38,029 nt of DNA from the UHGV virus genome UHGV-0335973. The stretch is one strand, 5' to 3'. This stretch comes from a virus. Shown here one piece after another: positions 12,609 through 14,017 of the stretch. Below the pieces are notes generated by a model. That model saw nothing but the letters and a program-made list of their open reading frames with translations, was not told where the DNA came from and ran no database searches. Made by a program: the position numbers and the translations under genes. Within the stretch, counting starts at the first letter, position 1. Each line of letters starts with the position of its first letter.

Positions 12609-13466
12609 ATTCCATATCCGTGGAAGACTCTGAATGAGATGACCTTCGGTATTCGATGGGGAGAGGTGGTAGCAATTGGTGGTGGAGTAGGGAGTGGTAA
12701 AACACTCATTGCTCACGAGCTGGTTGCCCATCTGTGCTTAGAGCATGGTTTTAATGGAGGTGGTTTCTTCTTGGAAGAGAAGGTAGGCATGTCTGTTAAG
12801 AACATTGCTGGTAAGTCAGCATCAATTCCTTTCCACCGACCTGATGTTGAATATGATGAGGAGGATTTGCGTAATGAAGCACTTCGTTATGCAGACAAAT
12901 TCTTCTTGTATGACAACTTCGGACAGAACGAATGGGAAGACATTAAACAGTGCATCCGTTTCTGGGTAGTTGAAAACCAGTGTAAGTTCATCATCCTTGA
13001 TAACATTACCGCTCTGGTATCTCATTTAACACCTTCAGAGATTAACACTGAAATCAGCAAGATTGCTTCCGAGCTTGCTGGTATGTGTAAAGAATTAGAC
13101 TTTACCGCTTTTGTGCTATCTCACCTTAATGCTCCGGCAGGTGGTGCTCCTCATGAAGAAGGTGGACAGGTACGTGAAGTACAGTTCACTGGCTCTCGTT
13201 CTCTTATGCGTTGGTGTCAATGTATCATTGGCTTTGAGCGTGACAAGCAAGCTGACGGCTTAGCTAAGAATCTCTCAGTCATTCGATTACTGAAAGAACG
13301 TAACTACGGTCAGACAGGTGTATGTTATACTAAGTATATCAGTGAAACCGGTAGACTTGTAGAAAGGGAAGACTTTGAAGTTGATGAAGATAATCCATTC
13401 GTTTTAACTAACGGAGAGGATGCAGCTTCTCTTCTCAACCAAGCAGATGGAGCTTCACCGTGGTAA
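12609..13466 (+). CDS. DNA primase-helicase, exon 2: DnaB/gp4-type helicase domain
   Basis: Walker [11 protein letters not shown]7 gp4-like LGARGGEV-type region ([10 protein letters not shown]); track ORF start at 12552 is intron-encoded. Confidence 0.7.
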
Positions 13467-14017
13467 AGAAAAAGAAGAAAGTGTTTGCATTCGATATCGA
13501 GAGTAATGCACTGTACGATGACATAACTAAAGTATGGTGTATTTATATCTTTGATGTTGAAACTGGTGAAAGGTGGGGCTATCGGCCTCACCAAATTGAA
13601 GATGGGATTCGTAAACTTACAGAAGCAGATGTACTAGTGGGTCATAATATTATTGACTTCGACTTACCTGCTCTGAAGAAGATGTACCCATCTTTGATTA
13701 AATATCATTTTAATGTCTTTGACACTTTATGTCTTAGTCGATATCTTAAACCTGACCGTATTGGTGACAGTCCTGAGTATCCGAAAGGCGACCCTAGACA
13801 TGGCCCAAGAGGTCATGGCTTAAAGCAATGGGGTGAGTTCTTAGAGGAACTTAAAGGTGATTACGGTGAGCAAGAGGAAGCATGGGATGCTTTCACGGAA
13901 GATATGTTTACTTATTGTGAACAGGACGTTAACTTAACCGTTAAGGTTTATAAATACTTGTGTGAACTCACAGGATTTGACCCTTACGACCCACCTTCAT
14001 TATATTGGAAAATGTAA
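13460..14017 (+). CDS. DNA polymerase 3'-5' exonuclease domain as a separate protein (start possibly GTG at 13481)
   Basis: FDIESNAL (exo I), GHNIIDFD (exo II), YCEQD (exo III) matching T7 gene 5 N-terminus. Confidence 0.65.

Follow-up and report, generated by a model that had tools for sequence, protein, structure and literature searches.

A DNA polymerase split between two genes has been described for phiEco32, the Kuravirus-like phages, 7-11, Privateer, Vp_R1, BUCT695 and the LUZ24 group in papers of 2012 and 2023 (PMC3517423, PMC9965538), and other kinds of split family A polymerases have been reported for marine phages. In the phiEco32 RefSeq record the two products are annotated as [quoted passage not shown] (phi32_74, gp74) and "DNA polymerase; lacks 5'-3' and 3'-5' exonuclease domains" (phi32_53, gp53), and the record of Proteus phage Privateer refers to the protein entries EXO74_BPE32 and DPOL_BPE32. 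A literature search for the biochemistry of split phage family A polymerases returned genome descriptions only. In this work, we analyzed the open reading frame (ORF) at positions 13460-14017 of the virus genome UHGV-0335973, a stretch of 38,029 nucleotides (hereafter the window), which a preliminary description made from the letters alone had read as the proofreading domain of a T7-type DNA polymerase encoded apart from the polymerase domain. Translated searches with this ORF (tblastn) and a megablast of the surrounding 14 kb assign the phage to the phiEco32 group (Kuravirus, Gordonclarkvirinae) of Escherichia coli phages, the window DNA being about 95% identical to phiEco32 across most of the region; the ORF is the orthologue of gp74, and the ORF starting at 22208 that of gp53. 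The split is real and had been rightly interpreted, and it is ordinary for this phage group, in which it is already annotated and published. The features discussed below are collected in Table 1.

The sequence searches and the structural comparison both place the product of 13460-14017 next to the N-terminal domain of T7 gp5. It scores 37.8 bits against Pfam PF01612 DNA_pol_A_exo1 (curated cut-off 23.6; E 2.2e-9; residues 4-167), and in BLASTP its residues 8-181 align with residues 1-196 of gp5 (taken from NC_001604) with an E value of 9e-18. The match to the N-terminus of the T7 polymerase announced in the preliminary description therefore holds, although at 32% identity it is not the close one claimed there. 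When all PDB sequences were searched with phmmer at E <= 1, the sole match was T7 DNA polymerase, residues 3-182 (E 6.5e-12). The three exonuclease motifs that had been noticed are present, as FDIESNAL (Exo I, D12/E14), GHNIIDFD (Exo II, N63/D68) and YCEQD (Exo III, Y152/D156), and they align with D5/E7, D65 and YNVQD of gp5. In an alignment of 39 sequences (38 standalone homologues and the T7 gp5 N-terminus) reaching down to 32% identity, the residues D12, E14, H62, N63, D68 and D156 do not vary, and conservation at Y152 is 90% or higher. The ORF is matched by 1905 phage records in tblastn, and across dozens of phages it is full-length and 97-99% conserved; relative to phiEco32 the gene differs by 21 synonymous and 5 non-synonymous codons, counts from which we consider it to be under purifying selection.

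The predicted structure agrees with the sequence. An AlphaFold2 model calculated from an alignment of 37 sequences, built without T7 gp5, has a mean predicted local distance difference test (pLDDT) of 93.9. In a Foldseek comparison with the PDB, its 27 top matches are all T7 gp5 (E 7e-12 to 8e-10; TM-score normalized to the query 0.60-0.75), followed by the exonuclease domains of family B polymerases and phage DpoZ near 5e-6. The Exo III motif is Y-x3-D, which makes the protein an exonuclease of the polymerase-attached DEDDy kind rather than a DnaQ-like DEDDh enzyme. A DnaQ-like assignment, one of two findings that the preliminary description had said would overturn its reading, was considered and rejected: no DnaQ was found at E <= 1 among the PDB sequences and none among the top 50 folds, and the motif is not H-x4-D. 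By its motifs and modelled fold, the protein is an intact DEDDy 3'-5' exonuclease with predicted activity.

The polymerase-domain gene had been placed at 22208, about 8 kb away and after about ten intervening genes. Its start and distance stand (8190 bp lie between the exonuclease stop and position 22208), but the genes in between number about 20 (20 annotated genes in phiEco32, phi32_73 to phi32_54). Joined, the two exons of this gene encode 614 amino acids without a stop, 99.3% identical to phiEco32 gp53 in a gapless alignment. In an hhalign comparison (E 4e-54), column 10 of a profile of 56 polymerase homologues aligns with residue 213 of T7 gp5 and the alignment runs to the C-terminus at 704; the end of exon 2 likewise aligns with the gp5 C-terminus (...H704). 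Ahead of the point equivalent to gp5 213 there are only about 7 residues, too few to leave room for an exonuclease domain in the polymerase ORF. A hidden domain of this kind, which was the other finding that would have overturned the preliminary reading, is ruled out by this alignment and by the search of exon 1, in which no Pfam domain was detected. The nearest PDB entry is again T7 gp5, by sequence and by fold (fold E 1e-25; AlphaFold2 model with a pLDDT of 90.5).

Aligning both ORFs to gp5, as had been suggested, also gave the domain boundaries. The exonuclease ends at the equivalent of gp5 ~196-200 (in T7, ...YFPPEIDFT) and the polymerase begins just beyond, at ~205-213. Since the two proteins end and begin at adjoining points of gp5, the two genes are, on these alignments, complementary halves of a gp5-like protein with the break in the interdomain linker, and the polymerase is split into two polypeptides as had been described. 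Three insertions relative to T7 gp5 were observed in the spliced polymerase, all predicted at high confidence: a helical one of ~70 residues in the thumb (~140-210), located after a segment resembling the thioredoxin-binding region, a beta-rich one of ~45 residues in the palm (324-370) and a helical one of ~25 residues in the fingers (389-413).

Taken together, these results make it highly probable that the product of ORF 13460-14017 is the proofreading subunit of a replicative polymerase of family A, of the T7 type and made of two polypeptides: (i) both halves are homologous to T7 gp5, (ii) the catalytic residues are intact, (iii) the predicted folds are confident, and (iv) the split and the gene order are conserved. 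In this phage, a group I intron would also have to splice itself out of the polymerase mRNA before that subunit could be made. The exonuclease subunit would dock non-covalently on the polymerase, at the place taken in T7 gp5 by the covalent exonuclease domain, and the conserved "FDxxxPP" tail at its C-terminus may be what is left of the linker. Once docked, the subunit would remove misincorporated 3' nucleotides passed on from the polymerase site, as T7 gp5 and Klenow do. Two points weigh against this proposal. The exonuclease-polymerase complex is deduced from homology and co-occurrence, and translational coupling ties the exonuclease gene to the helicase rather than to the polymerase, an arrangement in which equimolar synthesis with the polymerase is not obviously guaranteed.

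The same coupling, together with the 8 kb between the two genes, would also suit a free-standing nuclease that acts apart from the polymerase, in recombination, host DNA degradation or end processing, and leaves the polymerase without dedicated proofreading. Standalone DEDD enzymes do exist, and two of them, TREX and diDNase, appear in the Foldseek comparison of our model as weaker matches, near 3e-5. We nonetheless regard such a role as unlikely, because the protein is far nearer to the exonuclease domain of the T7 polymerase (E ~1e-11 vs ~3e-5), with T7 gp5 its only relative by sequence, and because it retains a C-terminal tail apparently derived from the linker. Moreover, exactly this domain has been lost from the polymerase in every relative whose polymerase was seen (phiEco32, Privateer and the exonuclease-less homologues), and the point of fission is exactly complementary in the two proteins.

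Rather less probable still is that the exonuclease is retained in the replisome chiefly by the coupled primase/helicase rather than by the polymerase, and edits in trans. The overlap or adjacency of the helicase and exonuclease genes is kept in Privateer and in the distant metagenomic relatives L003 and L005, and the helicase carries a T7 gp4-like acidic tail with a terminal aromatic residue, both of which would be in line with this idea. T7, however, has the same order, gene 4 followed by a gene 5 that starts with the exonuclease domain, and needs no helicase-exonuclease complex; the adjacency is explained simply as ancestral synteny. Besides, the gp4 tail in T7 binds basic patches of the polymerase, not the exonuclease domain (title of PDB 6p7e). 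In the window the helicase C-terminus (13340-13466) is an acidic tail reading ...ADGASPW, and that of L003 ends in ...KSPF, with Phe in the last position; the resemblance of this tail to the polymerase-binding tail of gp4 suggests, by analogy, a T7-like replisome. Finally, a decaying remnant of a once-fused polymerase gene, yielding no functional protein, would find support only in the unusual GTG start and the distance from the polymerase gene, and it is effectively refuted, and accordingly most improbable, given the full-length conservation of 97-99%, the invariant catalytic residues, the excess of synonymous changes (21 against 5), the confident fold and the GGAG found 7 nt upstream of the start.

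An exonuclease encoded apart from the polymerase domain is also what the homologues present. A word-indexed protein search found 66 exonuclease homologues, down to 33% identity, all of 101-247 amino acids (the full-length ones 163-247); the longest few lie on short contigs and run into thumb-like sequence, and may be fragments of fused enzymes. The best 120 polymerase homologues in the protein search, down to 29% identity, are all of 618 amino acids or fewer and include "DNA polymerase part II" of a LUZ24-like Pseudomonas phage and the polymerases of BUCT695 and Vp_R1. The comparison of fused and split forms in related phages that had been proposed thus returned the split form in phiEco32, in Privateer and in the LUZ24 type. 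The gene order around the exonuclease is similarly stable. In L003 and L005, whose exonucleases are 54% and 49% identical to that of the window, the order is primase/helicase, exonuclease, dCTP deaminase, Dps/ferritin protein and ThyX, with a helicase/exonuclease overlap of 29 nt in L003 and 1 nt in L005; a polymerase gene was not seen in the 10 kb downstream of the exonuclease in either. In Privateer, which belongs to another family, the primase/helicase gene is followed by those for the "DNA polymerase exonuclease subunit", for dCTP deaminase and for thioredoxin, with the polymerase 5.6 kb further on, and in T7 (NC_001604) gene 5 lies ~1 kb downstream of gene 4 with small genes between them. 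From the conserved split and gene order in distant relatives and from the order in T7, an ancient fission of a gp5-like gene appears to be the simplest history. The ancestral gene would have been cut in the interdomain linker, its exonuclease half staying beside the primase/helicase gene, to which it is coupled in the window by an overlap of 7 nt, and a block of nucleotide-metabolism and small genes would have grown between the halves, leaving the polymerase half ~8.2 kb and ~20 genes away.

That overlap also bears on the position of the exonuclease start, which the preliminary description had left between GTG 13460 and GTG 13481. As described there, the helicase stop overlaps the exonuclease start: the TAA (13464-13466) lies within GTGGTAA, whose GTG is that at 13460. 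Translation from GTG 13481 would yield MFAFDIES, similar in position to the T7 start MIVSDIEA, and is preceded only by AAGAAGAAA at a spacing of 3 nt. Exonuclease homologues at 57-80% identity carry a basic extension ahead of the FDIE motif (MVKQKK-, MVKKKKK-, -SKKK-, -NKK-), two of them (P0006 and P0007, MVKK-I/L-Y...) lacking a valid codon at which translation could begin internally, in the place corresponding to 13481, and the more distant homologues begin straight at M-K-I-Y-V-T-DIE. The orthologue in phiEco32 is annotated with the start equivalent to 13460. Because of the GGAG 7 nt upstream of it, the conserved basic extension and the absence of an internal start in P0006 and P0007, GTG 13460 is the favoured start on sequence grounds.

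The polymerase gene was further described as interrupted by an intron, and this is supported by a 706-bp insertion relative to phiEco32 that matches the group I intron family RF00028 with 42.7 bits (E 2e-9), under the gathering score of 50. A second insertion, in the primase/helicase gene, gives a sub-threshold match to the same family (27.7 bits, E 8e-5). Both matches were obtained by searching the two insertions in E-value mode; an Rfam scan of the whole window at the gathering threshold found nothing. In both cases T is the last base of the upstream exon and G that of the insertion (U/G boundaries), and removal of the insertion restores the frame, giving the polymerase described above and a primase/helicase of 596 amino acids (junction 11824|12609) that is 99.8% identical to gp75. 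The two insertions are in keeping with group I introns that harbour homing endonuclease genes, with self-splicing predicted from these features. For the polymerase gene, an intein was ruled out by an in-frame stop right past the junction, by the group I core and by the U/G boundaries. Many polymerase homologues among the best 120, of 437-463 amino acids, end at about the end of exon 1, which suggests that this site may often be interrupted.

As for the relationships of these elements, the polymerase intron sits in motif B (TRDNAKTFI|YAFNYGAG) and is 96% identical in phages Bas93 and Bas94. Within the polymerase genes of the Yersinia T7-like phages Berlin and Yepe2 there is sequence that matches its 3' core (about 24182-24235) at 87-89% identity, a hint that phage families may have exchanged introns at this conserved site of the polymerase. 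The primase/helicase intron lies between the primase and helicase parts and has counterparts of 90% identity in phages XT73 and XT18. Introns of many unrelated phages share its 3' core, and the polymerase intron ends in a sequence similar to its last ~30 nt. A further segment of ~970 bp (26447-27413), not found in phiEco32, probably represents the insertion of a free-standing homing endonuclease; it includes a third HNH_3 endonuclease ORF (26435-26926) beside an ORF for a calcineurin-like phosphoesterase (26936-27439).

A third protein might be part of the same enzyme. The phage thioredoxin gene reported between the two polymerase genes is indeed there; its product is 100% identical to phiEco32 gp65 and, in the phage collection, is confined to Kuravirus-like/C3 phages (117 records). 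It is without the first ~21 residues of E. coli TrxA and keeps the CxPC, the cis-proline and the glycine equivalent to G92. T7 takes the thioredoxin of its host, whereas this phage encodes its own, truncated one. On the side of the polymerase, residues 72-135 align with gp5 293-362 at 30% identity, a stretch that takes in half of the T7 thioredoxin-binding region, the C-terminal one, as well as the helix that comes next; in the corresponding loop (gp5 ~262-338) the N-terminal half is ~18 residues shorter, and the extra helical insert of the thumb comes afterwards. It is tempting to speculate, though the odds are rather against it, that the replicase is a three-piece holoenzyme in which the polymerase is joined by a dissociable exonuclease and by the phage thioredoxin, the latter sitting on a remodelled thumb insertion as processivity factor. 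The co-occurrence of thioredoxin and polymerase in the Kuravirus-like/C3 phages and the segment of the thumb homologous to the T7 thioredoxin-binding region speak for it. Against it, the thumb region is predicted by AlphaFold2 to be ordered by itself (pLDDT 85-95), and L005, which has the same split polymerase, carries five small ORFs at the syntenic place, none of them with a Pfam match; within the 20 kb covered of its 90-kb contig, the two genes thus do not always occur together.

In T7, processivity does not require the redox cysteines of thioredoxin. The gene in the window stands among those for dCTP deaminase and ThyX, and in relatives also near NrdD or NrdAB; a redox role fits equally well because the CxPC is conserved and the neighbours encode dCTP deaminase, ThyX and, in relatives, ribonucleotide reductase. 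By analogy with T7, a role in processivity is possible, but it is no better supported than a redox role. Thioredoxin had already been proposed as a processivity factor for Privateer in 2021 (PMC7881722), and proteomics of phage SU10 detected both the polymerase and the thioredoxin (PMC4281155). If the three-piece arrangement were true, the phage would be independent of host TrxA, and fidelity could vary with the stoichiometry of the exonuclease subunit, this being dissociable.

Table 1. Coordinates of the replication features discussed for the UHGV-0335973 window.
Feature	Position	Strand	Evidence
Primase/helicase exon 1 (zinc finger, Toprim primase part); upstream gene of the operon ending in the exonuclease gene	10892..11824	+	311 aa identical to phiEco32 gp75 N-terminal part; Toprim_2
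Group I intron in primase/helicase gene (predicted), with HNH_3 homing endonuclease ORF 11919-12419	11825..12608	+	Insertion vs phiEco32
Primase/helicase exon 2 (DnaB-type helicase); C-terminal tail acidic, last residue Trp; stop overlaps exonuclease start	12609..13466	+	Pfam DnaB_C E 7e-11
3'-5' proofreading exonuclease subunit (DEDDy) of family A polymerase (predicted), phiEco32 gp74 orthologue	13460..14017	+	185 aa, GTG start
Phage thioredoxin, 91 aa, CAPC active site	17698..17973	+	Pfam Thioredoxin E 2e-13
DNA polymerase subunit exon 1: thumb, part of palm, fingers up to motif B (...TRDNAKTFI)	22208..23558	+	Collinear with phiEco32 polymerase to locus position 23900
Group I intron in polymerase gene (predicted), with endonuclease VII-type HNH homing endonuclease ORF 23674-24180	23559..24264	+	706-bp insertion vs phiEco32; Pfam Endonuclease_7 E 7e-24
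DNA polymerase subunit exon 2: remaining motif B (YAFNYGAG...), motif C, C-terminus	24265..24758	+	Pfam DNA_pol_A E 2e-16; collinear with phiEco32 polymerase from 23901
Separate 5'-3' exonuclease (FEN-like), as T7 gp6	30848..31666	+	Pfam 5_3_exonuc_N E 6.5e-6, below curated cut-off

Other genes of the window deserve brief mention. A separate 5'-3' exonuclease such as the FEN-like one of Table 1 has been listed for the phiEco32-like group in the YF01 paper (PMC9965538); here it is followed by an ORF for a Dam-type N6-adenine methyltransferase (31660-32172, E 7e-49). The gene next after the proofreading exonuclease (14019-15332) is annotated in phiEco32 as a nucleotidyltransferase and gives a weak match to the PolyA_pol head domain (E 0.0035), the protein having a long and apparently low-complexity C-terminal region. 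Three successive small ORFs at 15876-16491 (65, 69 and 69 amino acids) are seemingly mutual paralogues, with similar lengths and ends reading ...Y-Y or ...H-Y.

Compared with phiEco32, the exonuclease is 96.8% identical over 185 amino acids, the spliced polymerase is nearly identical, and the gene order and the 7-nt helicase/exonuclease overlap are alike. The difference is that phiEco32 is without the two group I introns and homing endonucleases found here in the polymerase and primase/helicase genes, which are also present in a few sequenced relatives, Bas93 and Bas94 for the polymerase and XT73 and XT18 for the primase/helicase. In the Pseudomonas phages LUZ24, PaP3 and tf ("DNA polymerase part I / part II"), polymerase and 3'-5' exonuclease are likewise encoded by separate genes. 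In phage tf the exonuclease gp28 comes right after the primase/helicase gp27 and the polymerase gp38 about ten genes further on, and the LUZ24 polymerase gene also bears an intron (PMC3517423). The polymerase of the LUZ24 group (P0154) is a detectable homologue of the one described here, with ~34% identity, whereas the group belongs to another phage family with another host and has ~45-kb genomes, in which no homologue of the thioredoxin was found at E <= 1e-5.

T7 gp5 is the nearest solved relative of both proteins, sharing the exonuclease motifs and motif B (TRDNAKTFIY), and its gene is placed after the primase/helicase gene, as is the exonuclease gene here. However, gp5 is a single chain of 704 amino acids, whereas in this phage exonuclease and polymerase are on two genes, so that the enzyme is not of the single-chain type. 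For annotation, this means that the equivalent of gp5 occupies three DNA segments, the exonuclease gene and two polymerase exons, and that these amount to two proteins, not three. The phage would thus offer a natural case of a family A replicase with its proofreading domain in trans, convenient for studying exonuclease-polymerase communication after the loss of the covalent link, and a system for asking whether a phage thioredoxin replaces the host factor used by T7. In E. coli DNA polymerase III, alpha (DnaE) and epsilon (DnaQ) are separate polypeptides that act as one enzyme, an arrangement that the exonuclease and polymerase of this phage would parallel. The likeness is one of functional analogy only, since the polymerase of DNA polymerase III is of family C and not A, and epsilon is a DEDDh enzyme (H-x4-D), whereas the phage exonuclease is DEDDy (Y-x3-D).

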